Source: Elusimicrobia bacterium GWA2_61_42 (GTDB taxonomy: Bacteria; Elusimicrobiota; Elusimicrobia; Elusimicrobiales; UBA9959). Taken from it: a stretch of 64,000 bases of DNA. Numbering within the stretch: position 1 is the first letter of the stretch; each line of letters starts with the position of its first letter. Below, in pieces: positions 8,973 through 52,626 of this stretch. The notes beneath the pieces are model-generated. The model did no database searches. It had not been told where the DNA came from and saw only the letters and a program-made list of their open reading frames with translations. Location: positions 27,268 through 91,267 of the forward strand of contig MGTU01000021.1 of NCBI GenBank assembly GCA_001799615.1. The letters are read 5' to 3'. Made by a program: the position numbers and the translations under genes.

Positions 8973-8996
8973 CAAAGCCGGATCTTCTGCTATAAT
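8947..8996 (+). promoter_or_regulatory. Sigma70 promoter with upstream palindromic operator (copy 1)
   Basis: TTGACA 8969-8974, 16-nt spacer, TGc-TATAAT 8991-8996. Upstream TTGAC-tc-GTCAA (8947-8958) and inverted repeat GTCAAGGG-caac-CCCTTGAC (8954-8973). Confidence 0.8.
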
Positions 8997-9007
8997 ATGA
9001 TTGCAGC

Positions 9008-9165
9008 GCGGTGTGGTTGCGGTGCGGTAGTGTTTGGTTGCGGTGCGGTTGCGGTGCCCCGCTCTTTTGGCGCAGCGTAGTGCGGCGTAGTGCGGTTAAG
9101 TTGCGGTCGCAGACAGACTCGGTGCGGTGTAGGCTGCGCGGTGCAGGTTGGTGACAGCGTGCGGT
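9008..9165 (+). repeat. G/T-rich degenerate (T)GCGGT pentamer array in the 5' leader
   Basis: About 11 GCGGT copies counted by eye, e.g. at 9008, 9019, 9024, 9040, 9045, 9051, 9092, 9103, 9124, 9138 and 9161. Strongly strand-biased and A-poor. Confidence 0.8.
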
Positions 9166-9187
9166 GTTTGTCCCAAAAGAGCGGGGC
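9056..9187. repeat. Perfect 15-bp inverted repeat enclosing 102 nt
   Basis: GCCCCGCTCTTTTGG (9056-9070) and CCAAAAGAGCGGGGC (9173-9187). Confidence 0.9.
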
Positions 9188-9198
9188 GTTTCTTTAAG

Positions 9199-9277
9199 TA
9201 TCCGACAATAGCAAAGCCGGCCAAAGCCGGCGGCGCAAAGCCGAGGGCCCAAGGGGGTTGCCTGGCTGCCGAAGATC
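9199..9277 (+). ncRNA. GEMM-I (c-di-GMP-I class) riboswitch aptamer, A20 variant (candidate 3',3'-cGAMP sensor), copy 1
   Basis: CGACAAT-A-GCAAA, P2 GCCGGC-caaa-GCCGGC, GGCGCAAAGCC junction, P3, and 3' GGCTGCCGAA, matching GEMM-I core motifs. The base equivalent to Vc2 position 20 is A9210. Confidence 0.88.
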
Positions 9278-9280
9278 AAT

Positions 9281-9499
9281 ATGAAAGAGCGGTTCTACGC
9301 CCTCTGTTGCATATTTTTAAGTCCCGTTGCGGCTTGCGCCGTAGCGGCTTTTTTATTGGCTGACAGTTTAAAAATAGTTTTCCCGCTTTGTAACCTTTCC
9401 GTAACATTATTTATATATTATAATAAGATGGCACTGAACGTCCCGGCAATGGAAGGAGCACTCCTGTCTGGTCGTTCGTCGTCGTTTGTAAAAAACTGA
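9281..9499 (+). CDS. Putative leader ORF (72 aa; internal ATG 9428 gives 23 aa) abutting the giant gene
   Basis: Starts 3 nt after the aptamer, spans the terminator and ends TGA directly before the giant-gene ATG, in the same frame. Coding status is uncertain. Confidence 0.35.
   Translation: MKERFYALCCIFLSPVAACAVAAFLLADSLKIVFPLCNLSVTLFIYYNKMALNVPAMEGALLSGRSSSFVKN
9324..9354 (+). terminator. Intrinsic terminator, likely expression platform of riboswitch 1
   Basis: 10-bp stem CCGTTGCGGC-ttgc-GCCGTAGCGG (2 G-U pairs) followed by C and T6. Confidence 0.8.
9389..9421 (+). promoter_or_regulatory. Direct-repeat box TGTAAC-N5-CGTAAC plus -10 element (candidate internal promoter of the giant gene)
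   Basis: GTAAC at 9390 and 9401 (11-bp period). TATTAT 9416-9421 lies 10 nt after the second box; TATAAT also occurs at 9419-9424. Confidence 0.55.
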
Positions 9500-12400
9500 A
9501 TGGCGCTAAAAGGTAAGGATAAAGCGAAAAGTTTTGCGACCCGGCTGGCCCGGGCCGCGGCGCTTTGCTTTTTCTCCCTGACCGCGCTGCTGCTCCCCCA
9601 GGCCGAACTTTACGCCGCCGACTACGAATGGGGCGTGAAATACGCCATGTACGAGCTGCACGGCCGCAACTGGGGGTCCACGGCCGCCAGGACCACCATA
9701 GCTTTCCGCTTCACGGCCAAATACGACGGCACCGTGGACGAAATGAACATGATAGTGGGCCGCGCCCCCAACGCCAACCAGTCCATGCGCATCGGCCTGG
9801 CCTCCTCCCTGGGCGCCAACGCCGGGGCCCAGACCTTCCTGGCCTACGCGGACGTGAACCAGACCGGCGGCAATTCCGGCTACGCCTACTGGCAGGTGCA
9901 GGCCACCAGCGGCACCCCGGTAAACGCCGGCCAGGACTATTACCTGATCATGCGCCCTAACGCCATGACCAGCAACTCGGCCCTTCAGGCCGGCACGATG
10001 TTCGGCTATTCCAACGCCGACACGAAGGACGCGGCCGGCACCAACCTTATCTATCCTGACGGCGTTGCTGACAATAACCTGCAGGTCTATTACTCGAGGA
10101 GCAGCGTGGAGCCCTTCTCCCAGGTGCCCAACGCCATGCCCACCTTCGTCATCCGTTACGCCAACGAGGGGGCGGGCAACAGGTACCAGGGGCAGCCCTA
10201 TGGCGCCTTCCCCGTCAGTTCCGACGAAGCCCTGTCGACGGCAGAAGGCGGTATAAACACCGCCGTGCCCAGCTCTCTGGCGAACGTGCTGACCACCGAG
10301 AGCAATATTTACGGCTGGCGGGGCGTGGGCTATTACTTCACCGCCGACGCCGCTACCAGGAACATCGTAAAGGCCAAGATCTTCCTGCAGAAAGTGGGCA
10401 CCCCGGTGGACAAACTGAATGTGAGGGTGATCCGCGCCGCGCCTCCTTACGCGGTGGTCCTGGACACCACCGTTTACGCCGGGGCGGCGGACATCACCAC
10501 TACCTGGGGCTGGCAGCCGGCGGCCGGCAAATCGTTCCCGGGCGGCGTCTTTACCCCGGGGCTTTCCTATTACGTCTATTTCTTCTCCAGCGGCAGCCTT
10601 AACGGCAACCACTACCGCGTTTCGCTGATGGACCCCAAGGACTACGGCGGCGCCACGGCCGCCGGCGCCAACCTGGTCACCGCCAACGGCACGGCCGACT
10701 ATTACGTGGCCAACGCGGACGTCAGGAATTTCGCCGGCTTCGCCCGTCCTTACGCCAATACCTACGGCGACATCCCCATAGCGCTTACCTGCGACAACGA
10801 CCCGCCCGAAGTGGTGGTCACGCAGCCGCTCAATAACTCGGCGCGCAAGCTCATGGCGCTGATAGAGGGCACGGCCTATGATAATTATTACATCAGGGCC
10901 GGCGGCGTGCAGGTCTCCATCAAGAACATCACCACCACCAAGGTCTGGGACGGCGCCGGCTGGGTGGACGGCGAAGTTAACTGGCGTCCGACCACCGCCT
11001 TCTCGCCCAGCGAAGGGGCCGTCATCAACTGGTCCTACCCGATGACCTGGGTGCACAACAATAAGTACGAGATCAATACCAAGGTTGTGGACAGCGTGGG
11101 CAACTACGAAGGCAGCTGGTCTACCACCACTTTCTTCTTCGACGAGTACAAGCCTCCGCCCAACGAAGTGCCCGATTCCACCATGACCTTCCCGTCCAAC
11201 GGCATCTTCGTCAGCGCGCTCGACACTATCAGTGGCGTCGCGACCGACAACTCGCCCAACGGCAGGATCAGCCTGGTGAAGTGGATGATGTGGAAACTCG
11301 GCTCCTACTGGGGCGACGACAAGCTGTGGCACGCGGGCCTGCCGCCGGCCAACGTGGATACCACGTGGCTTAACTCCGACGACGGCTCCGGCTCCTACAC
11401 GGTGACCTGGCATGAGTACTTCGGCAGCGGCCAGATCCCGGACCCCGGCCAGATGGACACCGGCACCACCTATTATATAGCCGCCAGGGCCGAGGACAGC
11501 GTGGTGGGCCCGACCGGCGCTTACGATAAGAACAAGGAAGTGGTGCGGTCCACGTTCACTTTCTACTGGGACGCGGTGCCGCCCACCTCGGCCATCACCT
11601 ACCCGCAGAACAGCGGCGTGGCCGGCACCTCCCCCGTTTTCTACGGCACTTATTTCGACCAGCACGCCGGGATGTCCCCGGCCAGGGGCGCCGCCGTCAA
11701 GGTAAAACTTTACGACAAGACCGCCCAGCTCTGGTATCACGCCACCGGCTGGGACCCGGACGAGCCCACCCTCCTGGAGATGCCCGAAGCCGCCGTCTGG
11801 GCTTCTTCCTGGACTTATTCCCCGCCGTCCGGGCTGACCGGGGCTCACGAGTACCTGCTGGTGTCGATAGCCAAGGACGCCACGCAGCCCGGCAATTACC
11901 AGAGCAGTTTCGTCCTGGGTACTTCTTCCAATAACTTCGTCTGCGATAACCTGAACCCCGTCACTTCCATAGGCGTCCCCAACACGTCTTTCCGCAACCA
12001 GCTGGTCTCCATATCGGGCGCGGCGCAGGATTACCCGCAGCCCGGGCAGCTGAGCCGGGTGGAGATAGAGATAGTTCACCCGGCCGACACCCCGGCTTTC
12101 GCCTGGTCCGGCACGGCCTGGCTGCCCATTGTCGAGGATAATTTCAGCACCTATACTTATGTTTCAGGCGGCTACCCGACCTGGTCGTATACCCCCGTGG
12201 GCATAGGCTGGACCGAAAGCATCAAGTACCGCGTAAGGGCCAGGGCGCGCGATAACATAGGCAATATAGACCCGCTGTTCACGCTGGGTGTCAACGAGCG
12301 CCAGTTCCGCTATGACGTCTCCTTCCCTACCACAGCGGTCAATGTGCTGGTAGAGGACGGCGTGGAGCTGGCCACCCAGACGGTAAACAAGCTGCACGAC

Positions 12401-15400
12401 CTTACCGAGATCAAAGGGTACTACCAGGATTATCCCCCGGCTTCGGACGGCAGCTGGGGCGGTATTAACGTGTTCATAGAGAAAATAGACGGCAAGCCGC
12501 TGGGCGATCCTTTCTGCTGGGACGGGGCCAACGGTTTCTGGCGTTCCGACGTCTGTCCCGTGAAGAACGCGGGCGTGACGGGCTGGTATTTTGACGCTTC
12601 GGACATTACGTGGGCTACGGGCACGGCGAGGACCGACCCGCTGGACCCGCTGACCAGCTACTCAGCCTGGTCCAACGGCGGCGTTTTCCGCATACGCACC
12701 GAAGGCCGCGACACGGCGGTACCGGGCAATACTTTGCAGATGGCCGGCAACCGGGAAAAGATCGGCGTTTACGCCGACCTGCCCTACATAGACCTGACTT
12801 ACGACCCAAAAAAGCCGACGTCGAAACTGACCAATGTCCCCGCTAACGGCTACGCCAATACGCTGCCGGTGTTGGAGGGTACGGCCAGCGACCGGGATAC
12901 CACGGTGAACTACGTCCCCCGCATAGCCGGGGTGAAACTGCATATTTTCGACCTGAGCAATACTAAAACCTTCAACAAGAACACGCTGGAGTGGGACGAA
13001 GACGACGGCGACCTGCTCTTTGACGACGACCACTGGGTGGACGCGGCCTTCGTGGGGTATTCCTCCGGCACCTGGAGCTACAACATAACCGACGCCAAAT
13101 GGGCGCACGGCAGCACCTACAGGGTCATCCCGAAAACTTTCGACGACTCCGGCAATTACGAAGTGGGCCTGGACACCAGGACTTTCACTTTCGACGTATA
13201 CCAGCCCATGCCCAGCGAGGCGCCCAGCAGCCTTATCGGGTTCCCCCCGGACGATTACCACGCCAATACCCGCGCTTCCCTGGCGCAGGTCACCGGCACG
13301 GCCAAGGACAACCCGCCCATAGGCAAGGTGCTGGGCCTTAAGATAATCATGAAGAGGATAGTGGAAGGAACCACTTCCTACTTCACCGGCGGCACCTGGG
13401 CAGCCGGGGATATCCCGGAAAACGCTTCCTCCTGGTACAACGCCACGGCGGTAACCCCGCCTTTCGACACTTCGGCCGAGCCGTACACCTACGCCCTGCC
13501 GCCCATAGTCGACGACGACATGTGGGAGCCCAACGTGGTCTATTACCTTTACACCGAGTGCCGCGACTGGGCCGGCAACTACGAGCATGTGCGCACGACG
13601 CAGACCTTCGTTTATGAAATAAAGCACCCCACGGCCACCGTAACCTACCCCGTGACCGACGGCTACGTTTCTTCCGGCGGCAAGGTGGAGGGCGTGGCCC
13701 TGGACACCTGGCCCGGCAAGGTCAACAATGTTTTTGTGCGCATAAAGCGCAACGTGGACAGCTGGTACTGGGACAGCGCGAACACTACCTGGACCGACGC
13801 GGGCGCCCCCGACGTTTGGAACGACGTAAGTCTTCACGGCACCCTCAGCCTCAACAACACCTGGTGGCAGCTGGGCCCGACTACCTGGGAGACGGGCCAG
13901 CTCTATACCGTGGACGCCAAAGCGGTGGACAAGGCCGGCAACTGGCAGATCGTCTACTCCACGGCCTTAAGGGTGGCGGCCGACTTCGCCGTGCCTTCCT
14001 CCAGCGTGACCTACCCGGCCAACGGGGACGACCTTACCACGGACCTGACGCTGATCTCCGGCTCGGCCTCCGACGCCCTCCCCGGCCGGGTGAACAGGAT
14101 CCTGTTGTCTTACTACAAGGTGACCGCGCCCGCCGGCTTCTGGGACCGGACCGCCGGCAACTGGTCTTCCGCCGTAGAACTTTTTTACGACGGCACCGTG
14201 CTGGTCGGGCAGGATAAATGGCAGGCCACCGGCGCTTCCACCCCTACCTGGGTGACCACCGACGCCGGCGTGGACTACCAGATCTTCGCCAAAGCCGTGG
14301 ACGCGGCCAATAACGAGGTGGTTAAACCGGGCTCGCCCGCCCTTAACAGCCCGCTGGTGCAGTTCAAGCTGCGCACGCCGCTGCCGCTGTCGTATATCCT
14401 GACCCCGGACGGCACGCTGCCGCACTGGAAGCCCAACCCCAGCAATTCCATCGTAGGTACGGCCATCTTCTCCAGCACGGTGCAGCTGCGCATCGTGGAT
14501 TACGGCGGCGACTTCCTCGTCGGCGGCGGCGACGACCTGGTTTACGACGGGGCGTCCTGGCTGCCGGCCGGCCCGCCCAACGATACCCTGTTCATAGGCG
14601 TGCAGAGCTTCGACGGTTCCACCTGGCAGCATACGCTGCCGTCCGCGCACTGGAACGGCAACCGCAAGTACAACGTTAAATCCAAGGCTTGGCTGAACCT
14701 CATCCCCGAAAACCCCGGCACCGGCACCGATTTTATTATAGACGCCACCCCTCCCGCCGCGGCCGTTTCCAACCCCGGCCAGGCCTATATGAAGGCGCTG
14801 ACCGTGCTTGAAGGCGCCGTTTCGGATACCCCGCCCGGCGCCCTCCAGTACACCTATTTCAGGGTAAAACGCCAACTGGAAGAGAAGTTCTGGAACTGGC
14901 AGACCTCCACCTTTACCGCCCTCTCGGGCGGGTATACGGACCTGGTCCCGCAGACCGTTATCGGCGGGCTGGCCTCCTATACGACCGACTATTTTGTCAG
15001 CGGCGCCGCCTGGGAAGCCAACCAGTCCTACGTGGTGCAGTTCTATTCCACCGACAAGGCCAATAACCTGGGCACGGCCGCGCCCATGCCCTTTACCCTG
15101 GATATTTCTTCGCCTTCCTCGGGGCTGGTAGTGCCGCTGGCCGCAAATAAAGGCGGCATAAAGTCCATGCCGTATATCTCGGGCACCGCCTACGACTTCT
15201 GGCGCAGCACCGCCGTGGAAGTGGCCGTCCGCCGGCTGAGCGGCACCCAGCGCTGGTATGACGGCGGCGGTTTTAACGTTTCCGGCGCCGTCCCTTACTG
15301 GCTGGACGTAAATAATACGGCCGGTTTCCTTTCCCCGGACGCCACTTCCTGGATGTACAGACCGGCCGACCTCGACGGCGACCTGGATACCGGCGGCCTG

Positions 15401-18400
15401 TACCTTATCCTGTCCAGGGCGCGCGACGTGGCCGTCAACAGCCAGGACCAGTTCACGTCCAATATTTCCTCCATGGTGGTAAAAGTGGACCAGTCGGCCC
15501 CGACCTCGCTGATAGTGTACCCGGCCGACGACACGGGCGGGGTCAGCGGGCGCTACAAGCCCGGCGTAGTCGGCCAGGACGATATCCGCGGCACCGCCGC
15601 CGACAATCCCGGCGTGAACTACGCCGGCGTCAGCGACGTGAAAGTGCGCCTTTCCTACCTGGAGGGCGTCACCACCTATTACTGGTTCGGCGGGGCTTTC
15701 GTCGCCGTAAGTTCGGAGACGGCCTGGCTTAATACCGCCCTGGACGGCTCCTCCGCGCCGCCCTGGATCTGGGAATACACCGGCATGGTGCTCTGGCCCG
15801 CGGCGGACAAGGAATACCTGCTGGAAACAAAAGGCAGGGACCTGGCCCGGGACGCGGACGACGGGGTGGGCGGCAACGGCAACGTAGAGGCCTGGCCTTA
15901 TTCCTCCCGCAGGTTCATCGTGGACGGCACGCCTCCTTCCGTGGTCATCACCACTCCTTCGGCCCTGGCGCTGAAGACCCTGACCCGCATCGACGGCACG
16001 GCCGACGCCGCCCTGGCCGGCAACAGGTGGACGGATATCCGCATTTCTACCAACGGCACGGACGGCCTGAAGTACTGGGATGACGCCGCTATTCCTCCCG
16101 GCTGGGTCTCCGCGGACCAGACCTGGAACCAGTCGACCACGCTGGGGCCCACTTCCTGGTATTACACCGTAAACCCCGACATGCTCAAGGACGACGTGGT
16201 GTACACGGTGTCCGCGCGGGCGCTGGACTACGCCGGCAATTATTCGGTGCTGTTCTCCACCTATATATTTACTTATGACATAACGCAGCCGGCGGTCTCC
16301 GTAGTGTTTCCGCTCAACGATACGGCCTATTCGCAGATAAAGATCTCCACGCCGCTGGCCGGCGCCTCGCTGCAGGCCGGCCAGTCTTCGGCCAATACCG
16401 GGGTCAGCACGGTGGCGGTGCAGGTAACCGATCTGGACGGCGGGCCCGCCTGCTTTAACGGCGCGGCCTGGGACGTCTGTCCCGCCTGGCTGCCGGCGGG
16501 GGGAAATGTCGGTTCCTGGAACTATGCCCGGGCCGCGCTGGGCTTTGCCAACGACCACCGTTACCGGGTGGAGGCGCGCGCCACCGACTTCGCCGGCAAC
16601 GATTCCTCCGTCGCCTCCCTGTTCTTCCGCTACGACATAGAGAGGCCGACCACTACCCTGACCTACCCGCTGCCCGGCCTTACCACGGGTTTCGCCTACG
16701 TTTCCGGCACCGCCAGCGACGAAAGGTTCGGGGTGCATCTCTACGAGGCCAAGCTTTCCAGCTATACGGTGAAAGTGGCCGTCAAGCGCCTGACCGACCC
16801 GGCCGGCTGGTGGGACCTCGCCAGCGGCGAATTCGACGGCGGCAACCCGAACTGGTACGAGGCGAATAACTCTACCACGGTGGCCCCCAACCGGTTCCTC
16901 TATAACCTGCCGGCGGCCATGATCACAAAGATGACGGACCCCGGCAACCAGGACCCCGCCGTCACCTACCGGATCGTGTCGTGGGGCTATGACCTGGCGC
17001 TTAACCGCGAGTTCGGCGCCCAGGGCTCCGAACCGCTGGACGCGGATATCCCGCCCGGGGTGGGGACGAACGTCACCTTCGACAGCGAAAAGCCGGTGAC
17101 CGCCATAACCATGCCGAACGTGGCGGCGCATAACCTGGTCCCTAATATTACCGGTACGGCCGACGACAATGTCCGCGTTTCCGAAGTGCGGTTTACGGCT
17201 TTCCTGCCGGGCCTGGGCAAGTATTATAACCCGGCCGCCAACCCCGTCTGGGTGGAGGGCACCGAAGACGCGGCGCCCTGGCTGGCCGCGCAATCTACGA
17301 TCTACCAGACTTCCGCGGCCTGGACCTATAATATCCAGACGTCTACCTGGGTAAGCGGCTATACCTACCGGGTAAGGGCCAGGGCCAGGGACGACTCCGG
17401 CAACTACGACACGGTCTACGCCACCGCCACTTTCCTTTACGATACCGCGGCCCCCGAATCCAGCATCAGCGAACCCGCCGCCGGAGCGCATATCAACACG
17501 CTGCCGCTCACGCTGGTGGGCGCCAGCTACGACACCCACGCCTCCGGCGTCAACCAGATAAAACTTTACGTGGAAAGGCTGATCGGCACGGTGACCTATT
17601 ACTGGGACACTTCTTCCTGGCAGACCACCGAAACGTATCTGCCCATAGCGCCGCCCTACGCCAACTGGACCAGGCTGATGGAAGACAGCATGCTGATAGA
17701 CGGCGAACTCTACAAGGTCTATACGGACGCCCGCGATAACGCTCTGAACCAGGAGGGCGTCGGCCTTAAGACTTCTTTCGTCTATGACGTCAGCCATCCG
17801 ACCGCCGCCATCTTCTACCCGTACAATAACGGCTTTATCAGCGCGACCGGTAAGGTCAGCGGCGGCACTTACGACAAACCCAACGGAACGGTGAACGACG
17901 TGCTTGTGCGCGTGAAGAAACTGACGGGCACGGTAGATGTCGGCAAATACTGGAGCGTCAACGGCTCCTCCTGGACCGTGGACAATACGGCCAACAGCGT
18001 GGTCTCCTACGGCACGCTCAGCCCCGGCGCCACCTGGTGGCAGCTGAACGCCGACCCGTATCCCTGGGCCACCAACGAAACCTACGAGATGAACGCCTGG
18101 GCGTACGACAAGGCCGGCAACTACCAGTTCATCTACGCTACCGCCACCAACGTGACCGCGGACTTCACCAACCCGGTCTCCACCATCACCTCGCCGCTGC
18201 ACGGCGTTACCATAGAGGCCGAGATAGACAGTGTGTCGGGTAACGCCTCCGACGCCAACCTTGAAAAAGTGCTGCTGTCCTACAGGAAGATGGACACCCT
18301 GCGCTACTGGAACCTGGCTACCCACGCCTGGGACTCCGTGCCGGAACTTTTCTACCCCGCCGCCCTTATCGGGAATAACTGGACGGCTACGGGGGCTTCC

Positions 18401-21400
18401 ACGCCTACCTGGATAGCCCCTTTGGCGGGTATGGACTACCAGATCTTCGCCAAGGCCGTGGACAAGGCGCTCAATGAAGTGCCCAAGCCCGGCCTGCCGG
18501 GGCCGCTGTCGTCTTTCATCCAGTTCACCCTTAAACCGCCGCCGCCGGTGTCGGCCATCACTACCCCGGACCTCTCGGTGCCGCATTACAAGCCGGTGCC
18601 GGCGCCCCAGGTGATCGGTACCGCGGTTTACGCCACCACGGTGGCGGTGCGCGTGGTGGATTACGGCCCCGACCTGGTCAGCGGCGGCGCCGACAACCTG
18701 GCCTGGAACGGCGCGGACTGGCTGCCCGCCTCCGTATTCACCGGTTTTGCCGGGGTTGATAATTACGTGGCGCCCAACTGGCAGTGGACCATTCCCTCCG
18801 CCAAATGGAACGTGAACCGCCGCTACCGGGTGATCTCCCAGGCCTCGCACGAGGTGAACCTGACGGTGGAAACCCCCGGCGTGGGCGTGGAATTCATAGT
18901 GGACTCCACGGCCCCTTCCGCCGGCGTGACCATGCCGGACAAAACTTATATGCGGTCCCTTACCGCGCTGGCCGGCACTTTATCGGACGTGGCGCCCGGC
19001 GACGCCGCTTCGGCTTATTTCCGCGTCAAACGCCAGGGCCTGGCCGAATACTGGAACTGGCAGGCTTCCACCTTTACGGCGCTGAACGGCCAGTACACGG
19101 ACCTGCCCGCCGCCCTTGCCTGGAACGAAACGCTCAAGACCGGGACGGCGCAGTATACGACCGGCTACTTCCTGGCCGGGCTGGCTTTTGAACAGGACCG
19201 TTCTTACTCGGTGGAACTTTACGTGAACGACAAGGCGGGCAATCCCGGTTCGGCGGCGGCGTTCCCTTTCTCCATAGACGTTTCCTCGCCCGTGGCCCGG
19301 GTGCTGAACCCGGTGGACGCGAATAAAAAAGGCCTCAGGGTCCTGGACGGCATAAGCGGCACGGCGTCGGATAACTGGCTGAACAGCGACGTGCAGATAG
19401 CCATGCAGCAGTGGGACAACTCCAATAACCTCTGGTACGGGTTCGACGGGCTCAGCTGGGACTTCAACCAGGCCTCTCCCTACTGGATCTCGATGAAGAC
19501 CAACGGCTCGCTTTCGAACGACGCCACCTCCTGGATGTACGCCCCTGGCGGCCTGGACGGGAAATTCACGCCCGGCATCAGCGGTTACAAGTACATGCTG
19601 CTTTCCAAAGCCGTCGACACGGCCGGCAACGCGCAGTCCCAGTACACGGTGGACGTTTCCTCCGTGCTGATAACCATGGACAAGGCGGACCCGTCTTCGG
19701 TCATTACCCTGCCTCTCGACGACATGACCGGCGCCGGCGGCAGGTATAAGGCGGTCAATATCGGCAAGACCGCCACGGCTTCCCGGTTCAACGGCACCGC
19801 GAAAGACGACGCGTACGACCAGAATAACTCCGGGGTGGCCGCGGTGCAGGTGCGGCTGTCCTACCTGCTGAGCAACGATACTTACTACTGGAACCAGTCC
19901 AACCTTAATTTCAGTTCCTGGACCGTGACCGCCGCTACCGCCTGGGCGGGCTGCCTGCTGGGCGGCTCCGCCCCGAACTGGACCTGGACTTTCCTCACCG
20001 ATATCAGCTGGCCGGCCGGCGACAGGGAGTATAAACTCGAGTCGCGGGCCATGGACGACGCCAGGGCCTCGGACGATACCGGCGAAGGCAACTGGGAAGA
20101 GCCGGTCTCCCGCGGGGTGAACGTGAAATACTTCATCGTGGACGACACCCCGCCCACCGTGGTTATCACCACGCCTGCCGCCTCGGCGGTAAGCGCGCTG
20201 CCCGGTTTCGGCGGCGACGCCGCGGCCCTCATCGCGGGGCTGAATACGGTGCAGGTGCAGGTCTCCACCGGCACCGGCATCAACACGCGCTACTGGAACG
20301 GCGCCGCCTGGCAGGCGACGGAGTGGCCGGCGCTGAACGACACCAAACTCGGGCCCACGTCCTGGTATTACACGCTCTCTCCCCTGGCGCTCAAGGACGA
20401 CGTGGCCTATACCTTCGTGGCCCGGGCGCTGGATTACGCCGGCAACGTTTCCGCGGAATATTCCACTTATACTGTAACGTATGACATAACGGGGCCGCTG
20501 GTCTCGTTGTCTTTCCCGGTCAACAACACCACCTATTCGCAGATACTGCTTTCCACCCCGCTGGCGGGTACCGCCACCAACAACCAGACCGCCGCCTTCA
20601 GCGGCCCCAGCACGGTCGCCGTGGCCATAACCGACCTGGTCAACAGCACCTGCTTCAACGGGGCCTCGTTCGCCGGCTGCTCCGACAGCCTCTGGCTGCC
20701 CGCCCAGAATACGGTGGCCGCCTGGACTTTTACGGACAAGGACCTGTCCTTCATAAGCGACCACAATTACAAGTACGAAGCCCGCTCTGCCGACGCCGCG
20801 GGCAACTATTCCGGCGTCACCTCGGTTACCACCAAGTTCGACCTGGACATTCCGACTTCCACGGTTACCGGCCCGATGACCGAGTACGTCAAAGCTCTGA
20901 CGGTCATTACCGGCACCGCGCAGGACGAGCGCAACGGCATCCGCACCTACGAGGCCAGCCTGGGCACCTATACGGTGAAAATGGCCATCCGTATCGTGGG
21001 CGGCAACTGGTGGAACGGTTCCACGGCTTTCGACAGCGCCAATCCTAAATGGTACGAAGTGGCGGTCAATACCGCCCCTTACGGCAGCGGCGACCCGGTG
21101 GTGGGCTGGCAGTACCTGGTCCCCGCCGACGTGCAGGGCGTTATGGCGGGCCTCAGCGGTTCGCCCCCTTACCTGCGCAGCTACCTGCTGGTCCCGTGGG
21201 CTTACGACCTGGCCCAGAACCGCGAATTCGGCCCCGGCGGCATGGACCCGGTCAATACCGACGTACCGGGCGGCGTGGGCCGCATCCTGAAGTTCGACAA
21301 TATCCTGCCGGTTTCCGTGACCACTGCCCCGGCCAATATTTCCTACAAGAGGTCGGTGCTCTCCCTTTACGGCGTGGCCACCGATACGGGCGTGGTCACC

Positions 21401-39400: not shown

Positions 39401-42400
39401 TCGGCCATCTGGAGCGGCCTCAAGCTGGACCGCTGGGTGACCGCGGCCGAGAACGGCAACACCCCGGTGTGGAACAAGGTCACCGACGTCAAGAAGATCA
39501 GCATCTGGCAGGACTCGAGCGGCAACGGCCTGCTGGAAACCACGGGTCTGGACAAGGATACCGAAGTGCTGATGATCGGCCCCAATCTGCGCACCTTCCC
39601 GTATGACGCGCTGAAGGCCCCCATCATGTCCACCGACACGGTCATCCGCGTGTACGACGTGCAGCGCTTCTTCGCGACCGACAGCCCTTTCCCGCCGGCG
39701 CCCGGCCGCCTTATCGTCAACGACGGCCAGGCCAACCCCGACCTGAAAGAGGTCATCTACTATTCCACCGTGGACGTGCTGGGCAACGCTTTCAGCGGCC
39801 TTACCCGCGGCGCCGAGGGGACCGTGGTGCCTTCCAGCTGGCCCGCCGGCACCATCCTCTCCGGCCAGGCCGTCCTGCCCATGATAGGCTCCGGCGGCGC
39901 CCTGGACGGGCAGGCTATCTATAACGTGGCCAAGGACTACTTCGTTACCTACGATATCGACCCGCTGGCCAACGTTTCCAATTTCGCGTATATCGGCATG
40001 GCCATCCGGAGCACGGACTATTTCATGATAGCCGCGCCCAAGCTGATGAGCACCGCCAACGTGGGCGTGACCGCCCCCGGCAAGTCGCTGTCGCTGATCG
40101 GTAAGGTGCGCGAATATTCCGACGAGGTTATCGTAAAGGCCACCGACACCATACTGGGGCCGACCTTGCAGCAGCAGGGCGTGGACCAGCCGGTCATGGC
40201 TTTCACGCTGGAGACCAACGTGGCCGACGCCATGTGGCGCTGGCTGACCGTTTACGCCACGGGCACCGTCATCCAGGACGGCACGGCCATCAACGACATC
40301 TCCGTGGTCAAGGTCTGGTACGACAAGGACAATAACGGTTTCCTGGGCGGCAGCGACGTGATGGTCGGGTCCGGCACTTTCGGCAATACCATCTACGGCC
40401 CTCTGACCGCCAGGGTGGACTTCGGGACCGAACAGCGGATAATTACGGCCCTCGAGGCCGCGAACAGCGCCATTTCGCACCGGTATTTCCTGACCTACGA
40501 CATCCGCGATTCGGCCATGCCTAACGACGCGCTGGGTAATCCGCGCTACCTCGGCGCCTACCTCAAGGCGGAATCCCTGCCCCAGGGCAGCCCTATCGTG
40601 GACGATCCGCGCAAGAACGCGCTGTCGCTGCCCAATTTCTTCTCCGCGGTCAACTCCAACCTGACCTTCGTTTCGAGGGTAAGGGAGATCATCTCGAGCC
40701 CCAGCACGGTGACCGTGCTGACCGAGCCTATCTTCTCGCCCGACTACTCCGCCTCCAAGCTTTCCGTACGCCTGGCCGACCACGTCAACACCATAGTGGC
40801 GCAGGACTCCAACTGGGTGGTCACTTCCACGGTGGGCCTGCCTTCTTCCGGCTACGCCGTGGTGGACAATGAAATAGTGCATTACGCCGGCACCACGGCC
40901 GGGGCGCTCAGCCTGGTCACGCGCGGCGCCTTCAACTCGCCCATCATCACCCACAGTTCCGGAACGGTGCTGGGCGGCATGATCTACCAGGGCATGATCA
41001 ACTACCCGTTCATGCAGATGACCCTGACCACCTCGGGCTACGGCGTGCGCTGGGTGGGCCTCAAGCTGTCGCGCAAGCAGCCGGCCAGCCTGGTAGGCTA
41101 CGACGACGACGTGGCCGTGGTAAGGGTGTGGAAAGACAACGGCAACGGCGTCTTCGACCGCGACGCGGCCACCGGTCTTAATACCTCCGATGTCATCGTC
41201 GGGTCGGGCCGCTTCGGCGCCAACGACCCGGTGGGCAAGGCTACCATCTACGTGAAAGACCCCGCGCTCAACGACCAGAACTACGTGGTAGTAAAATCCA
41301 CGCCCATCCTGATCTTCGTTTCCATGGACATCGACAAGGCGTCCAGGTTCTCCAACGTCCTGCTCAGCCCGCAGAACGACGTCCTGGGCGTGGAGATCCC
41401 CTTCGAGACCAACTTCCTGTTCGGCCCGGAGAATTCCGGCCATACCGCCCAGTTCCTGTCGCCCGCCCTGAGCCAGCTTAACGCGCTGCTGCCGACGCTG
41501 AACAACATCACGCTGACGCCCGAGGACATCTCGCCCGTCAGCGTGACGCAGAACGACAAGAACGTGGGCGTGCTGGCCATGCGCCTGGTCACGGACAAGA
41601 CCTCCGCGCGCGTAGAGGCCATAAAGCTGGACCGCCGCGGGTCCGCCAACGACTCGGATATAGACCTGATCAAGGTCTGGAAGGATTCCAACGACAACTG
41701 CATCCTGGACTCCGTGGACACCTCCAGCAGCGGCGCCGGCGTCTACCCGAACCTGGCCAGCTACGGCAACGAGTCCTTCTCGTCCAGCACCGTCAATATA
41801 GCGCTGAAGAACCCCATCGTGGTCACCACCAACCCGGTCTGCGCTTTCATCAGCTACGACATGTCGCAGTTCGCCATTATCGGCAGCACGGCCGGGCTTT
41901 CCATCAACTCGACCGCTTACGTGACCATAGGTATTCCCAACACGGTCACGCTGACCACCTGGCCCGTGAATACCATGCCCATGGTGGTCTGGGAGATCCC
42001 GTCGAACGTGGCGCTGGGCGCCAACGACGTGGCCAACGAGCTGGTGCTGGCCGGCGGCGTCAACCAGGCCCAGCTCAAGGCCCCGATGCTGAGGTTCAAC
42101 CTGGCCACCGAGGCCGGCAACGCCCGCTGGAGCGCCATAAAGGTGCAGCGCACCGGCGCTTCCAACGACCCGAACGCGCCGTTCGGCAAGAATACCGACG
42201 TCAAGCTGATAACCATTTACCAGGATTCCAACCAGAACGACATGCTGGACGTGAACGACGTGAATATTTCCGAGGCGAGGAGCATCATCCTCAACGCTTT
42301 CACGTCCACCGACACCCTGCCGTTCAACCTGGTGCTGGCCTCCACCGCCGGTTTCCCCGTTTCGGGCCGGCTCTATATCGAGGAGGCCGAGCTGGTGTCT

Positions 42401-44974: not shown

Positions 44975-45080
44975 AGCGCGCCGGGGGGAGGCGGGGGCCT
45001 GCCTGCAAGGTTGTTAGTAAGGATATATAGGGCTGATCAACACCTTGGCCAGCGGTCCAAAACCATGTTTGGGGCCGGCC

Positions 45081-45130
45081 TTGACATGTCAAGGGGGTGG
45101 CCTTGACAAACCAGTTCTATCTGCTATAAT
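45081..45130 (+). promoter_or_regulatory. Sigma70 promoter with upstream palindromic operator (copy 2)
   Basis: TTGACA 45103-45108, 16-nt spacer, TGc-TATAAT 45125-45130. TTGAC-at-GTCAA 45081-45092 with the same 22-nt offset to the -35 as copy 1. Confidence 0.8.
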
Positions 45131-45146
45131 ATTAATGCCGTAAATC

Positions 45147-45163
45147 TGTAACGAGTTTGTAAC
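45147..45163 (+). promoter_or_regulatory. TGTAAC-N5-TGTAAC direct repeat (OmpR/PhoB-family, WalR-like box)
   Basis: TGTAAC-gagtt-TGTAAC, lying between the promoter and riboswitch 2. Confidence 0.6.
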
Positions 45164-45171
45164 GCCGTATT

Positions 45172-45254
45172 GTTACGATAATAGCAAAGCCGGTGAAAGC
45201 CGGCGGCGCAAAGTCAAGACCCGCTAAGTGAGCGGGGGTCAGACTACCGAAAAC
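45172..45254 (+). ncRNA. GEMM-I riboswitch aptamer, A20 variant (candidate 3',3'-cGAMP sensor), copy 2
   Basis: CGATAAT-A-GCAAA, P2 GCCGGT-GAAA-GCCGGC (GNRA loop), GGCGCAAAGTC, P3 CCGCT/AGCGG, and 3' GACTACCGAAA. The position-20 equivalent is A45183. Confidence 0.88.
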
Positions 45255-45255
45255 G

Positions 45256-46872
45256 ATGAAACGCATTCTTGCTGATGCTTTTGCCCCCTTGGCTATATGG
45301 GCTTCTTTGAAGCGTGTAATACGCTTCAGCCCGGTCATGGGGCTTTTTATTGCGTTTTCGGCGGCTTCGGCCCTGGCCCAGAGCGGCGGCCAGCCCGGGG
45401 CTTTCATGTCCTACGGCGCCGGCGCCAGGTCCCTCGGTATGGGCGGCGCTTTCTTCGCGGTGGCCGACGACGCCTCCGCCTCTTACTGGAACCCCGCCGC
45501 CCTCACCCTGCTGGAGCGCAAAGAATTCACCGCCATGCAGGCCACCCTCTTCGAAGACACCACGCTTAATTTCTTCACCTACGCGCATCCCACCACCACC
45601 AAGGGCACCTGGGCGATCAGCATGACCCAGCTTAAGTCCGTGGGCTTCGAGAAGATCTCCATCACCGCCAATCCGGCCGGCGACGAGATCGTGGACATCA
45701 AGACCGAGGGCAGCTTCGACAGCGTGGAGCAGGCCATGGCCTTCTCCTGGGGCCGCGACGTCTCCGATAAGCTCGCTTTCGGCGTGATGGCCAAGAACAT
45801 CACCCGCTCCCTGGACACCTCCGTCGACTCCTTCAAGGCCATCGACATCGCCATGCTGCAGAAGTTCTCCAAAACCTACCGCGCGGCCATCGGCATACAG
45901 AACGTGTTCTCCATGGCTTCCGGAGATACCGACGACAAGCTGCCCCTGACCATTAAATTCGGCCAAGCCCTGAGCCTCTTCAAAGGGGCCCTGGTCTTCG
46001 GTTTCGATATCGCCAAGCCCCAGAACTCCGCCACCAACTGGCGCTTCGGCGGCGAATACTGGCTGATGTACTGGAGCGCGCTGCGCTTCGGCGTGATGGG
46101 CACCCCCGCCATCCAGGAAGCCGATTTCGGCCTGGGCATCAAGTATAAGAACCTCGGCTTCGACATCTCCCAGGGCGTGCACGCGCTGGGCTCCACCACC
46201 CGCTTTTCCGTCACGCTGCGCATGGGCCAGTCCAACAAGAGCAAGCACGACCGCGAGGTCCGCGAGATCGTCCGCCAGGCCCTGCAGTACTTCAAGTCCG
46301 GCTACTTCACCCGCGCCATGGAGAAGCTGCGCAGCGCCATGGACGCCGACCCCGGCAACGCCGAGATCCGCCGCATGGTGACCCGCCTGCAGGGCGCCAT
46401 CGACTACGTGCCCGACGCCACCGGCGGCGAGGAAGTGCCTACCCTGACCCGCCGCGGCATCATCGCCTACGTGGACGGCAAAGACCTGCGCGCCTCGGTC
46501 AACGTGCTGCGCCACGCTTTCAACAAGGACCCCAAGAACGACCGCCTGCTCTCCCTGCTCAACATGGTGGAGAAAGAGGCCAATGTGAGCGAGCTGACCC
46601 GCAAGCCCGAGGGTCCCGAGATCTTCACCTACATAGACCAGCGCACCTATGACGCCCGCCAGTCCATCTACGACGGCAAATACGACCTGGCCATGAAGCG
46701 CGCTCAGGACATCCTGGACCTCGAGCCCAACAACGAGACCGCCCTGGAGATCATGGGCAGCGCCTTCTACCTGATGGACCAGAAAGAGAAAGCCAAGGTC
46801 ATCTGGGAGCGCGTGGTGGAGATCAACCCCAATAACTCCATAGTGAAGAACTTCCTCAAGCAGGTGCGTTAA
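45256..46872 (+). CDS. PorV/PorQ-family (UPF0164, FadL-like) outer-membrane barrel with C-terminal TPR region
   Basis: Signal peptide ending ASALA-Q; hallmark GAGARSLGMGGAF-x-AVADDASASYWNPA; alternating beta-strands to about STTRFSVTLRM; TPR helices after. Confidence 0.85.
   Translation: MKRILADAFAPLAIWASLKRVIRFSPVMGLFIAFSAASALAQSGGQPGAFMSYGAGARSLGMGGAFFAVADDASASYWNPAALTLLERKEFTAMQATLFEDTTLNFFTYAHPTTTKGTWAISMTQLKSVGFEKISITANPAGDEIVDIKTEGSFDSVEQAMAFSWGRDVSDKLAFGVMAKNITRSLDTSVDSFKAIDIAMLQKFSKTYRAAIGIQNVFSMASGDTDDKLPLTIKFGQALSLFKGALVFGFDIAKPQNSATNWRFGGEYWLMYWSALRFGVMGTPAIQEADFGLGIKYKNLGFDISQGVHALGSTTRFSVTLRMGQSNKSKHDREVREIVRQALQYFKSGYFTRAMEKLRSAMDADPGNAEIRRMVTRLQGAIDYVPDATGGEEVPTLTRRGIIAYVDGKDLRASVNVLRHAFNKDPKNDRLLSLLNMVEKEANVSELTRKPEGPEIFTYIDQRTYDARQSIYDGKYDLAMKRAQDILDLEPNNETALEIMGSAFYLMDQKEKAKVIWERVVEINPNNSIVKNFLKQVR
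45308..45348 (+). terminator. Two adjacent hairpins plus U-tract inside the porV signal-peptide coding region (possible expression platform of riboswitch 2)
   Basis: TGAAGCGT-gtaat-ACGCTTCA (8 bp), then AGCCC-ggtcatg-GGGCT-TTTT. The second stem is weak. Confidence 0.4.
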
Positions 46873-46883
46873 GCACCAGCGCA

Positions 46884-47014
46884 GGGCGCGGGCCGGGTCG
46901 GGTTAGCAAAACCCTGCCGGAGCCCGACGCTTGCGTAAGCGCGGAGGGCGAGGCGGGGAGTGGCGAGCACGGTGTGCGAGACCACGTTTTTGCGTTCCGA
47001 CCCGGCCTGCGCCC
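46884..47014. other. Highly structured intergenic element (REP/MITE-like or ncRNA)
   Basis: 18-nt arms GGGCGCGGGCCGGGTCGG and CCGACCCGGCCTGCGCCC (1 G-U pair). Nested stems GCAAAA/TTTTGC, CCCTGCC/GGCGGGG, GCTT/AAGC, GTGG/CCAC and GCAC/GTGC. Confidence 0.55.
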
Positions 47015-47041
47015 GGAGCGGAATTAAAACTTGAACTTTTT

Positions 47042-47074
47042 TGAAACATTCCTGTAATAAGGTAAAGATAGAAT
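47042..47074 (+). promoter_or_regulatory. Direct-repeat box TGAAAC-N5-TGTAAT plus -10 TAGAAT
   Basis: Boxes at 47042 and 47053 (11-bp period). TAGAAT 47069-47074 lies 10 nt after the second box. Confidence 0.5.
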
Positions 47075-47083
47075 AATATTGTC

Positions 47084-49033
47084 ATGCGTAAACCCGCGCT
47101 TATCTTAATTTTGCTGGCCCTGGCCGCCTTCGGGGCCCAGGCCCAGACCACCATGCCGGCCGTAGCCGACGGCATGAGCTCGTCTTTGATGGAGCGCCAG
47201 GACTCCCTGCGCCGGGAAACCGAGACCAAGATAAAGAACGAGATCCTGGACCCGATACTGGGCCCCGCCAAATCCTTCGTGTTCGCGGACGTCGAGCTGG
47301 AGGTCATCTCCAAGAAAGCCGAACAGAACAAAGAAGGCATCGGCATCATACAGAAGTACAAGGAAAAAGGCTCCGGCCAGGGCGGCGGGGGCGATACCGA
47401 TTTCATCCTGCCCGGCATTCCCAAGCCCAAGTCGGTGCTGGGCGGGGACAACAAGCGGCCGGAGGCGGCCTCGGGCCAGCAGGCCCAGCAGGCCAAGGGC
47501 GTGCAGGAGATCCGCTACGGCCTGGAGACCGAGATCACCCGCTTCCAGCTGACGGTCATCCACGACGACACTCTTTCCAAGGAAGCGGTAAAGCTCGCCC
47601 GCGAGCGGGTGGACGATTTCCTGATCCCCTACAAGATCCGCAAGAAGGACGCCCCCACGGTGGTCTTCAAGCCCACCAGGTTCAACGTGGTCAACCCGCT
47701 GGACGACCTGAAGCGGCCCGGCGTGTACCTGCCGTTGCTTTACGCGCTGCTTTTCCTTATACTGCTATTGTTCCTCTTCGGCCCGCTCTGGGGCTTCTTC
47801 CGCAAATATATCAAGGCGCTGCTGGCCAAGCCCGGCGCCGAGGTCAATATAGAGGATAAGAGGGAGGAAGGCGGGGGCGGCGGCGGCGAGGAGGAGGGCA
47901 AGGAAGAGACCGAGGGCCACCAGAGCATCGATATGAATTTCCTGCAGAAGGAAGCCGAGAAGAAAGAAGAAGAGGACGACCTTATGAAGAAATTTGAGCC
48001 CTTTACCTACCTCAACGAGGAAAACCTCAAGCGGCTGATCTACCTGTTCCTGCTCCGCAAAGAGGACCCGTGGGTGATAGCCGTGGTGCTCAGCTATATC
48101 AAGCCGGACCTGGCCCGCCAGGCTTTGTCCATGCTGCCGATAGAAATGCAGTCCCGCGTGGCCCTGGAGGCGCTGACCGTGCGCCAGGCCACCCGCGAGC
48201 AGATAGACGCCATAGACAAGGATATCCGCGAGAACGTGGATTTCGTGATGGGCGGCATAGAGCGCCTGGCCAAGATGCTGGACGATTCCGACCCGGCGAC
48301 CCGCAAGAATATCATCGAATACCTCAAGACGCAGAAGCCCGACATCTACGAAAAGGTCAAGCGCATCGTGCTGATGTTCGAGGACATCACGGGTTTCCCC
48401 GACCGCGACATGCAGGTCATCATCAGGAGCCTGTCCAACGAGGACATCGCCCGCGCCGTGGCCAAGGCGGACCCGGCCATCGTCAACAAGTTCTTCACCA
48501 ACATGTCGCAGGGCGCCGTCAACGCCATAAAAGAAATAATGGAGTATTCCGGCGAGGTCACGCCGGCCCTGCAGGACGAGGCCCAGATGAAGATCCTGGA
48601 CGCCGTCAAGGCTTTGGAGGCGGAAGGCAAGATCAACGTGCGCCAGGGCAATACGCAGGAGGTCTATATCATCGACGGGGGGGAGATGTCCTCCGCGGAC
48701 GAGCGCAAGCGCAAATTCGACAGCATGTCCGCGCCCAGGGAAGAAGCGGCCGCGGGCCCTACCGCGGAGCAGGCCGCCCAGGCGCAGCAGTACCTGTCCG
48801 CCGGCGTGGACCTTTATAACCAGGGCAAACTGCCGGAAGCGCTGCAGTACCTGGAATACGCCTCCTCCCAGAACCCCGGCGACGCGTCCACCTGGCAGTA
48901 CCTGGGCACCGTCTATTACGCCCAGCAGCGCGTGGACGAGGCCGTGGCGGCCTACGAGAAATACGCCTCGCTTTCGGGCGACCCGGCCGCGACGGAGTGG
49001 CTGGCCGGCTTCAAGGCCCAGGTAGGTCGCTAG
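47084..49033 (+). CDS. FliF(RBM3-like)-TM-FliG(M,C)-TPR fusion protein with signal peptide
   Basis: Signal peptide to AQA. FliF-like periplasmic block (EILDPILGPAKSFVFADVEL...LPGIP...EITRFQLTVIHD...LSKEAV). TM about 47718-47800. FliG-M (FEPFTYL...EDPWVIAVVLSYI, EHPQ-like) and FliG-C (GGIERLAKML...MFEDI...NMSQ...EAQMKI...LEAEGKI). C-terminal TPR. Confidence 0.8.
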   Translation: MRKPALILILLALAAFGAQAQTTMPAVADGMSSSLMERQDSLRRETETKIKNEILDPILGPAKSFVFADVELEVISKKAEQNKEGIGIIQKYKEKGSGQGGGGDTDFILPGIPKPKSVLGGDNKRPEAASGQQAQQAKGVQEIRYGLETEITRFQLTVIHDDTLSKEAVKLARERVDDFLIPYKIRKKDAPTVVFKPTRFNVVNPLDDLKRPGVYLPLLYALLFLILLLFLFGPLWGFFRKYIKALLAKPGAEVNIEDKREEGGGGGGEEEGKEETEGHQSIDMNFLQKEAEKKEEEDDLMKKFEPFTYLNEENLKRLIYLFLLRKEDPWVIAVVLSYIKPDLARQALSMLPIEMQSRVALEALTVRQATREQIDAIDKDIRENVDFVMGGIERLAKMLDDSDPATRKNIIEYLKTQKPDIYEKVKRIVLMFEDITGFPDRDMQVIIRSLSNEDIARAVAKADPAIVNKFFTNMSQGAVNAIKEIMEYSGEVTPALQDEAQMKILDAVKALEAEGKINVRQGNTQEVYIIDGGEMSSADERKRKFDSMSAPREEAAAGPTAEQAAQAQQYLSAGVDLYNQGKLPEALQYLEYASSQNPGDASTWQYLGTVYYAQQRVDEAVAAYEKYASLSGDPAATEWLAGFKAQVGR

Positions 49034-49035
49034 GA

Positions 49036-49084
49036 ATTAACATTTGTGTAACTTAATTGAAACCCGCTTCCTTTAGAATATAAA
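49036..49084 (+). promoter_or_regulatory. Triple 11-bp-period box (TTAAC/GTAAC/GAAAC) plus -10
   Basis: Pentamers at 49037, 49048 and 49059; TAGAAT 49074-49079 lies 10 nt after the last. An alternative reading is TTGAAA-16-TATAAA. Confidence 0.5.
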
Positions 49085-51431: not shown

Positions 51432-51536
51432 CCGCGGGTTACAGGGTCTTGAAGGAGGGGCGCGGGGATAAAAGTCCTTTCTGCGGCCCCGCTTCCCGAC
51501 TCCGTAACTCCGTGACTTATTAGTATAATTATTCAA

Positions 51537-51761
51537 ATGATAAAGCTCGAAAAACTCAACGGCACGATCGTGGTGGTCAACGCCGAACTCATAGAGACCA
51601 TCGAGGCCGCCCCCGATACCGTGCTGAACCTGGCGACGGGCAACAGGTTCATCGTCAAGGACTCGGTGGATTCGGTCATCGCCAAGGTGGTGGAGTATAA
51701 AAAAGTGGTTTACTCCGAGCGGAAATGCGTAAACCCGTTCGAGGGCTTTGAGAAGCGGTAG
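51537..51761 (+). CDS. flbD: FlbD/SwrD-family protein
   Basis: MIKLEKLNG...VNAELIETIEAAPDTVLNLATG...VKDSV, the family signature, directly upstream of motA. Confidence 0.88.
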   Translation: MIKLEKLNGTIVVVNAELIETIEAAPDTVLNLATGNRFIVKDSVDSVIAKVVEYKKVVYSERKCVNPFEGFEKR

Positions 51762-51778
51762 CTGCCGGAGACACAAAT

Positions 51779-52567: not shown

Positions 52568-52626
52568 CGGAAGGGATAGCGCGGTAAGCGGAGCAAGCCG
52601 CTTAAAGGAAGCGAGGACCTGAATTT

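Follow-up and report, generated by a model that had tools for sequence, protein, structure and literature searches.

The 64,000-nt stretch of the Elusimicrobia bacterium GWA2_61_42 genome analyzed here (contig MGTU01000021.1, positions 27,268 to 91,267; hereafter the window) carries short direct repeats upstream of a gene for a giant surface protein and of several genes that follow it. The question raised by this locus is whether these repeats belong to a single kind of promoter, which protein reads them, and whether they tie the genes together as parts of one system. A first-pass annotation had described them as WalR/PhoB-type boxes and had proposed that one OmpR/PhoB-family regulator controls the giant gene, a porV-like gene and the 'rotor' genes. 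The source genome is a 2.95-Mb metagenome-assembled genome (MAG) of a groundwater member of the Elusimicrobiales with a G+C content of ~62%. We hold with moderate confidence that the repeats mark one conserved promoter class in which OmpR/PhoB-type activation would replace the −35 element, with the product of C21:11967-12725 as the candidate regulator. C21 denotes the contig of the window; positions without a contig prefix are those of the window.

Reading of the sequence located box repeats at 9389, 45147, 47042 and 49036–49063, exactly where the first-pass annotation had placed them. Site 1 (9389–9421, + strand) consists of TGTAAC (9389–9394), N5, CGTAAC (9400–9405), N10 and TATTAT(AAT) at 9416–9421. 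It lies downstream of a riboswitch (riboswitch 1) and a terminator, 78 nt before the ATG at 9500 of the giant gene (9500–44974, + strand), which encodes a surface protein of 11,824 aa. Site 3 (47031–47074, + strand) contains TTGAAC (47031–47036), TGAAAC (47042–47047), TGTAAT (47053–47058), N10 and TAGAAT (47069–47074); its target (47084–49033, + strand) is a secreted or membrane protein with FliG_M, FliG_C and TPR domains (Pfam FliG_C 6e-24, FliG_M 2e-10), referred to below as FliG-like. Site 4 (49036–49079, + strand) contains ATTAAC (49036–49041), TGTAAC (49047–49052), TGAAAC (49058–49063), N10 and TAGAAT (49074–49079), and precedes a unit (49113–53415, + strand) made up of a 772-aa protein without assigned function followed by flbD-like (51537–51761), MotA (51779–52567) and MotB (52627–53415) genes. 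At these three sites the last box ends 10 nt before the −10 hexamer (at 9416, 47069 and 49074), as had been noted.

Site 2 (45147–45179, + strand) reads TGTAAC (45147–45152), N5, TGTAAC (45158–45163), N10 and TACGAT (45174–45179), and lies before the porV-like gene (45256–46872, + strand), which encodes a PorV/PorQ-family outer-membrane protein with TPR repeats (NCBIfam PorV_fam 105.9 bits, cut-off 90; Pfam UPF0164 and TPR). The first-pass annotation had set this site apart because it is downstream of a promoter. Its position was correctly read, as the boxes fall at about +11 to +27 of a consensus promoter, P1 (TTGACA 45103–45108, TATAAT 45125–45130), yet it is no exception in geometry, since N10-TACGAT follows the boxes. 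This −10-like hexamer overlaps the 5′ edge of a second riboswitch (riboswitch 2). The count of four box promoters was too low. A fifth site, on the − strand at 58371–58414 (TTTAAT-N5-GTTATT-N5-CGTAAC-N10-TAGAAT; score of 32 with a position weight matrix, PWM), precedes an open reading frame (ORF) of 578 aa (56564–58300, − strand), and the syntenic position in the sister species G021 carries a perfect GAAAC-N6-GTAAC-N10-TAGAAT. The geometry does not occur before flbD, in agreement with the earlier reading: the repeats at 51500–51517 (CCGTAAC-T-CCGTGAC) lack 11-bp phasing.

The boxes follow the consensus YGWAAY, often with a subsequent A, and are arranged as two or three head-to-tail copies every 11 bp with T-rich spacers of 4–5 bp. 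The extra third box of sites 3 and 4 is in phase, 11 bp further upstream, and the 11-bp recurrence places the boxes on one face of the helix. The proximal box, at about −28 to −23, ends exactly 10 bp before a TAnAAT −10 hexamer, and the next box occupies about −39 to −34. A −35 element is poor: at least four of six matches to TTGACA were found for 1 of 28 box promoters, compared to 20% of the other upstream TAnAAT hexamers. Repeats at helical-turn intervals (10–11 bp), a fixed 10-bp distance to the −10 and a weak or absent −35 are features of a promoter dependent on a class II, −35-replacing activator. The sites would be activator-dependent sigma-70-type promoters of one conserved class, with the boxes in the place of the −35 element. 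In the proposed mechanism, an OmpR/PhoB-family winged-helix protein would sit on the boxes as a tandem dimer or oligomer and recruit RNA polymerase, standing in for the −35 contact in the manner of PhoB at pho boxes.

An activator is not the only protein that could read such boxes. The −35 elements of extracytoplasmic function (ECF)-like sigma factors typically contain AAC, and those of Bacillus SigX and SigW resemble TGTAAC/TGAAAC. The near-invariant AAC core of the boxes, and their TGTAAC and TGAAAC forms, would fit direct recognition as a −35 by an RNA polymerase holoenzyme with an ECF-like alternative sigma factor. The spacing does not: box 2 and box 1 lie 10 and 21 nt from the −10, compared to 16–18 nt for sigma-70-family factors, and at sites 1–4 no CGT-type −10 was found 16–17 nt past any box. 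The −10 is of the housekeeping type (TAGAAT or TATAAT), and two or three in-phase copies of the box are conserved. We rejected this explanation on spacing and −10 type and regard it as very improbable.

Single boxes are short and frequent, with 17,221 occurrences of GWAAY in the genome, so chance similarity within AT-rich intergenic DNA had to be considered. The strict pattern TGWAAY-N5-TGWAAY occurs six times in the genome, both strands included; three of the six are within 4 kb of window sequence, all on the + strand. When we scanned the genome for GWAAY-Nx-GWAAY-Ny-TAnnAT with x from 3 to 9 and y from 4 to 19, seven perfect matches were obtained at the spacing (6,10), four of them inside the window, compared to zero or one at each of the 111 other spacing pairs (13 in total). 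The first-pass annotation had allowed that matches might be no more frequent here than in other AT-rich intergenic DNA; this spacing-specific excess speaks against that. With at least 13 of 14 positions matching, there were 20 matches at (6,10) and at most 12 at other spacings. Across 25 genomes of the genus the composite was found 134 times, compared to 4 times in a backward control and once in a control re-spaced to (8,13), where counts across genomes are non-independent events because orthologous sites share ancestry. In the reduced sister family f2 (15 genomes) the composite is nearly absent. Upstream regions of the source genome are enriched for TATAAT, TAGAAT, TTGACA, TGCTAT and Shine-Dalgarno hexamers, whereas hexamers with GTAAC or GAAAC showed no general enrichment there. 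This identifies the boxes as the mark of a specific promoter subset and rules out a general housekeeping promoter feature. AT-rich intergenic composition as the cause was ruled out by the spacing scan, the hexamer test and the genus controls, and with the orthologous conservation described next the probability of chance similarity becomes negligible.

All of sites 1–4 are kept at orthologous loci, within flanks that have diverged. The geometry of site 1 is retained in 13 other genomes of the genus, always past the riboswitch terminator, and the DNA between terminator and boxes ranges from ~30 to 250 nt and cannot be aligned. These promoters were located by means of the riboswitch DNA, since the N-terminal 300 aa of the giant protein (window 9500–10399), used as a query, matched at E ≤ 1e-30 just one of the 17 genomes searched in the genus; promoter and riboswitch are thus conserved despite a poorly conserved protein N-terminus. 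In 15 orthologous leaders of site 2 the boxes remain xGTAAY and TACGAT is invariant, with a variable N5 spacer (GAGTT, GGTTC, TTTTT, TATTT, TTATT, GGTTT or TCTTT). At site 3 the boxes, the 11-bp period, N10 and TA(G/A/C)AAT are kept in 22 of 22 orthologous loci with upstream sequence that is unalignable. Its conservation extends to further Elusimicrobiales MAGs and to a genome of a different family (G026; protein identity 60%), which has AGAAAT-N5-TGTAAC-N10-TAGAAT. Three boxes are present at site 4 in 20 of 22 orthologous intergenic regions, which are ~80 to >300 nt long with widely different flanks. In all site sets only AA(C/T), box positions 4–6, is near-invariant, and position 3 takes any base. 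Statistics and orthology together bear out the earlier proposal that one promoter class links the giant gene, the porV-like gene and the FliG-like 'rotor' gene. A separate idea, an RNA hairpin pairing box 2 of site 2 with GTTAC, was dropped as the changes across species are not compensatory.

Beyond the window, the PWM and pattern searches put the class at ~20–28 promoters in the genome. Nearly all strong matches are intergenic and directed at a downstream ORF. Target genes were assigned by sequence inspection and Pfam. They encode PorV-like and LysM proteins (C2, C19); a cluster on C8 with four box promoters that includes a CTD protein, a PorV-like/TPR protein, a kinase, a FliG-like protein and MotA-MotB; MotA followed by a FliG-like protein (C17); a 1,899-aa Kelch-like protein, a 1,222-aa FN3 protein and long coiled-coil proteins; and PilM- and CpaB-like proteins as well as an HD-GYP protein. 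The first-pass annotation had taken the shared regulon as independent support that the genes of the locus form one system. That argument is not supported, as the class is not private to the locus; the distribution of targets supports one envelope or surface regulon and not one machine.

The paralogous cluster at C8:136372-154145 encodes two CTD-bearing proteins, a PorV-like/TPR protein, a kinase, a FliG-like protein and a coiled-coil HATPase protein, together with a divergent MotA-MotB-kinase-CheY-CheY-regulator operon. The genome as a whole encodes at least six FliG-like proteins. At C14:16542 (+ strand) a strong TGTAAC-N5-CGCAAT-N5-TTTAAC-N10-TATAAT lies 6 nt before a 409-aa HD-GYP-motif protein containing HDIGM and HERxDGSGYP; this promoter could possibly provide feedback from the box regulon to levels of cyclic di-GMP (c-di-GMP). 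The start codon at box promoters is often just 6–10 nt past the −10, which implies leaderless mRNAs, and the FliG-like mRNA, with its ATG at 47084 only 9 nt past the −10, would be nearly leaderless. Short distances of this kind were seen at the FliG-like gene (TAGAAT-9 nt-ATG, 47069–47086), at flbD (TATAAT-7 nt-ATG, 51524–51539) and, genome-wide, at many genes with a −10 hexamer 6–10 nt before the start codon. In this lineage, leaderless or near-leaderless mRNAs seem common at box promoters and beyond them.

Which protein reads the boxes? The genome contains 14 Trans_reg_C genes, and among them C21:11967-12725 is the sole one with a strong box promoter (score 34) heading its operon. It encodes a 252-aa OmpR-type regulator and lies 24 kb upstream of the giant gene. 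The operon starts at the box promoter C21:10222 and comprises genes for a 372-aa membrane protein, a small ORF, the regulator, a stand-alone receiver (C21:12759-13145) and a thioredoxin-like protein. Downstream of another box promoter (C21:14622, score 37) come genes for a Cache-HAMP histidine kinase, a hybrid kinase and a GerE-type regulator (C21:17933-18610), with a kinase at C21:14698-16590. The whole neighborhood is 15–25 kb upstream of the window. We chose this regulator as the candidate because its own operon and the adjacent kinase operon both begin with box promoters; it most likely regulates the box class, and the two promoters suggest positive autoregulation. The logic of a regulator next to its site holds elsewhere in this organism, as three other OmpR-type genes adjoin 11-bp phased repeats of their own (TTTACAC on C9, TGTAACC on C5 and GCTCAAA on C4). 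The promoter of the C21 regulator operon is kept in at least 19 genomes of the genus with changed box letters and the same geometry. The protein is 87–96% identical within the genus and 67–70% identical in family f3. It was not found at E ≤ 1e-40 in family f2, where the FliG-like gene and the motif are also missing.

The DNA-binding domain of the candidate is intact (PF00486, Trans_reg_C; 87.8 bits, E 5e-25), with the PhoB-like recognition helix PRTVDVHVRRLR. Alignment identified its N-terminal part as a pseudo-receiver: ED is changed to AS, the phospho-acceptor Asp to Gly, Thr to Leu/Glu and Lys to Tyr, and there is a 20-aa insert. The Pfam Response_reg match is partial and covers residues 16–80. 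The protein thus has both features of atypical OmpR-family regulators, catalytic residues lost from a retained receiver fold and an intact Trans_reg_C domain, and it scores far below every NCBIfam equivalog cut-off. The gene for this pseudo-receiver plus winged helix-turn-helix protein directly precedes that of the 128-aa stand-alone receiver (C21:11967-13145; L049:4668-5846), giving the look of a 'split' response regulator; the best matches of the 128-aa protein are the receivers of OmpR-family regulators.

These properties were compared with those of known OmpR-family systems. The pho box consists of a conserved 7-mer plus a 4-bp A/T-rich linker in an 11-bp unit, with the last repeat 10 bp before the −10 (PMC1906773). 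As at the class II promoters of Escherichia coli PhoB, the tandem direct repeats seen here replace the −35 and end 10 bp before a TAnnnT −10 (PMC1906773), and the recognition helix of the candidate is almost identical to the PhoB-type RTVDVHIRRLR. The letters differ, TGWAAY(A) compared to CTGTCAT, and so do the targets, which are envelope and motor genes instead of phosphate genes. The candidate scores 124.8 bits against a PhoB cut-off of 296.2, and phosphorylation is not possible at the usual Asp. The organism likely has its true Pho box elsewhere, distinct from the TGWAAY class: a PhoBR-like pair (C9:25797-27868) is followed by four copies of TTTACAC at exact 11-bp phase (C9:27878-27921) and then by DUF47-pit. 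No phosphate gene lies downstream of any TGWAAY site, and a search of the genome for PhoU found none. A Pho regulon was ruled out on these grounds.

WalR sites are hexamer-N5-hexamer repeats (PMC4168254). The layout of the WalR (YycF) box, TGTWAH-N5-TGTWAH, is the same as here and TGTAAC fits TGTWAH (PMC4168254, PMC6624279), whereas the conserved boxes TGAAAC, CGAAAC, TTTAAC and GGCAAC do not. With the YycF model the candidate reaches 107.8 bits, far short of the cut-off of 340; it belongs to another phylum and has no WalK-type partner identified. A WalR regulon was ruled out because of this score and because the third box position varies freely (TGT, TGA, CGA, TTT, GGC and others). In Alphaproteobacteria the CtrA box, TTAA-N7-TTAAC, is likewise read by an OmpR-family protein; at flagellar and pilus promoters its half-sites fall close to the −35, at a distance of 11 bp from each other (PMC3751295, PMC3692519). 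The sequence TTAAC also occurs in several of the present boxes. CtrA differs in being phosphorylated and tied to the cell cycle, and the candidate reaches 76.8 bits against a CtrA cut-off of 350. A parallel in protein design comes from HP1043 (HsrA) of Helicobacter pylori, ChxR and GlnR, whose receivers also lack phospho-acceptor chemistry. HP1043 is an atypical, phosphorylation-independent orphan that binds hexamer-N5-hexamer repeats (PMC5253667), and, as here, these are direct repeats with centers 11 bp apart on the coding strand of tens of promoters (PMC5253667, PMC3960148). It differs in its box (TTTAAG), in a regulon of translation and housekeeping genes, and in that a stand-alone receiver and a kinase operon lie beside the regulator here; orthology with the candidate is not detectable beyond the family level. 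The OmpR/PhoB-family part of the first-pass proposal is supported by the promoter architecture; scores, box letters and the TTTACAC repeats show that the regulator is neither WalR nor PhoB proper.

Several points weigh against this assignment or limit the evidence for it. The OmpR/PhoB family was inferred from two things, box geometry and gene neighborhood. The box PWM was built from pattern matches and is partly circular, and the gene calls are rough, having come from an ad hoc codon-usage script. The count of 28 promoters is inflated, as C5:31321, C5:39778 and C29:1470 probably belong to another regulator; these C5 and C29 PWM matches have TGTAACC boxes and GC-rich spacers. The joint absence of regulator, FliG-like gene and motif from family f2, whose genomes are reduced, counts as one loss event only. 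At site 2, TACGAT may be constrained by the leader RNA instead of by promoter function. Finally, a second degenerate OmpR-type regulator (C8:149031-149717), beside the paralogous FliG cluster, is encoded in an operon with a box-like site (score 18.7).

This last gene is the best example of an alternative in which the regulator is another of the 14 paralogues, or several with overlapping specificity. The C8 regulator is part of the MotA-MotB-kinase-CheY-CheY operon headed by the box-like site, and four box promoters surround it; the TGTAACC boxes beside the C5:31042 regulator indicate that several paralogues read similar half-sites. Its site is weak, however, at 18.7 compared to 34 and 37 on C21, and its recognition helix, LRSVDKRIEALR, is unlike that of PhoB or WalR, which read TGT-type boxes, whereas the C21 protein has the helix given above. 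We consider a paralogue unlikely. An 11-bp self-similarity scan, which returned nothing at a high threshold, detected phased repeats at a lower one: TGTAACC/TTTAACC boxes with GC-rich spacers at C5:31306, C5:39769 and C29:1455, and GCTCAAA boxes at C4:201814 and C4:202119. The C5/C29 and C4 repeats are probably separate small regulons.

The boxes could also be bound by a member of another family, such as the NarL/GerE-type regulator at C21:17933-18610, or by some other factor. The second C21 box promoter heads the operon that includes this GerE-type gene. NarL-type sites, however, are usually inverted heptamers. Hexamers repeated head-to-tail with an 11-bp period, the last of them 10 bp from the −10, are the signature of activation by the OmpR/PhoB family (PMC1906773, PMC5253667). 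We judge a binder from outside this family improbable and retain the C21 OmpR-type protein as the candidate.

The giant and porV-like genes each combine a sigma-70 promoter and a c-di-GMP-I riboswitch with a box promoter. The leader of the giant gene begins at a P1 promoter (8947–8996, + strand) composed of the palindrome TTGACTCGTCAA (8947–8958) and TTGACA-N16-TATAAT; this is followed by the riboswitch 1 aptamer (9200–9273, + strand; Rfam RF01051, 58.8 bits, E 6e-9) and by an intrinsic terminator read from the sequence at ~9324–9356 (+ strand). The P1 of the porV-like leader (45081–45130, + strand) has the palindrome TTGACATGTCAA (45081–45092) and TTGACA-N16-TATAAT, and is kept in 15 genomes of the genus. 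The riboswitch 2 aptamer (45173–45251, + strand; RF01051, 57.8 bits, E 1e-8) ends 4 nt before the ATG at 45256. The two P1 promoters look alike: in each, a TTGAC-N2-GTCAA palindrome precedes TTGACA-N16-TATAAT by ~10 nt. This arrangement suggests that both genes share a second regulator, one that is dimeric. The porV leader lacks the G/U-rich GCGGT(G) repeat array that lies between P1 and riboswitch 1 (window 9000–9180). A third c-di-GMP-I-like aptamer core was seen at C9:114478-114525. It is followed ~100 nt further on by a weak box-like site (C9:114631, PWM 14.7) and by a 713-aa ORF, possibly as another instance of the riboswitch-plus-box layout.

Box-driven transcripts of the giant gene would start past the riboswitch terminator and so escape control by c-di-GMP. 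For the porV-like gene, transcripts begun near 45186 would lack the first aptamer pairs, with the same result. Each gene would then have two inputs: transcription from P1 gated by c-di-GMP, and transcription from the box promoter that is driven by the regulator and blind to the riboswitch. To our knowledge, no conserved design has been described in which the placement of a promoter bypasses a riboswitch. For the porV-like gene, and possibly elsewhere, the boxes could instead serve, as an operator or roadblock, to repress the sigma-70 promoter upstream of them. Site 2 lies where such a roadblock might be placed, at about +11 to +27 of a consensus promoter, and a start directed by TACGAT that cuts the first aptamer pairs would be an odd design. 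Against this, the N10-TAnnAT geometry is invariant in 15 species, and the equivalent stretch before riboswitch 1 reads CCGACA, so that the aptamer does not dictate TACGAT. One protein could also do both jobs. We view pure repression at this site as somewhat unlikely. Activation from the boxes remains our preferred reading, and we advance, only tentatively and as a possibility short of an even chance, that a phosphorylation-blind OmpR-type master regulator, with a separate receiver and kinase, is one input of a two-input switch with c-di-GMP riboswitches over paralogous PorV/FliG/MotAB envelope machines.

In gene order, the window encodes three TPR proteins, followed by the long leader with riboswitch 1 and the giant ORF; riboswitch 2, the PorV/PorQ-family TPR gene, the FliG_M/FliG_C/TPR gene, the 772-aa gene and the flbD-like, MotA and MotB genes come next. 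No relevant paper on Elusimicrobia with FliG and MotA turned up in a literature search.

Phased boxes of the OmpR/PhoB type are themselves textbook knowledge, and no new mechanism is involved; the value of the analysis lies in a regulon map and a candidate regulator. A concrete protein and its proposed DNA sites are named, so that their interaction is testable in vitro without growing the organism. The 32-bp signature identifies genes that would be co-activated with the 11,824-aa surface protein and the FliG/MotAB-like genes in an uncultivated lineage, and it predicts that paralogous copies of the machinery, pilus genes and a c-di-GMP phosphodiesterase are under one control.

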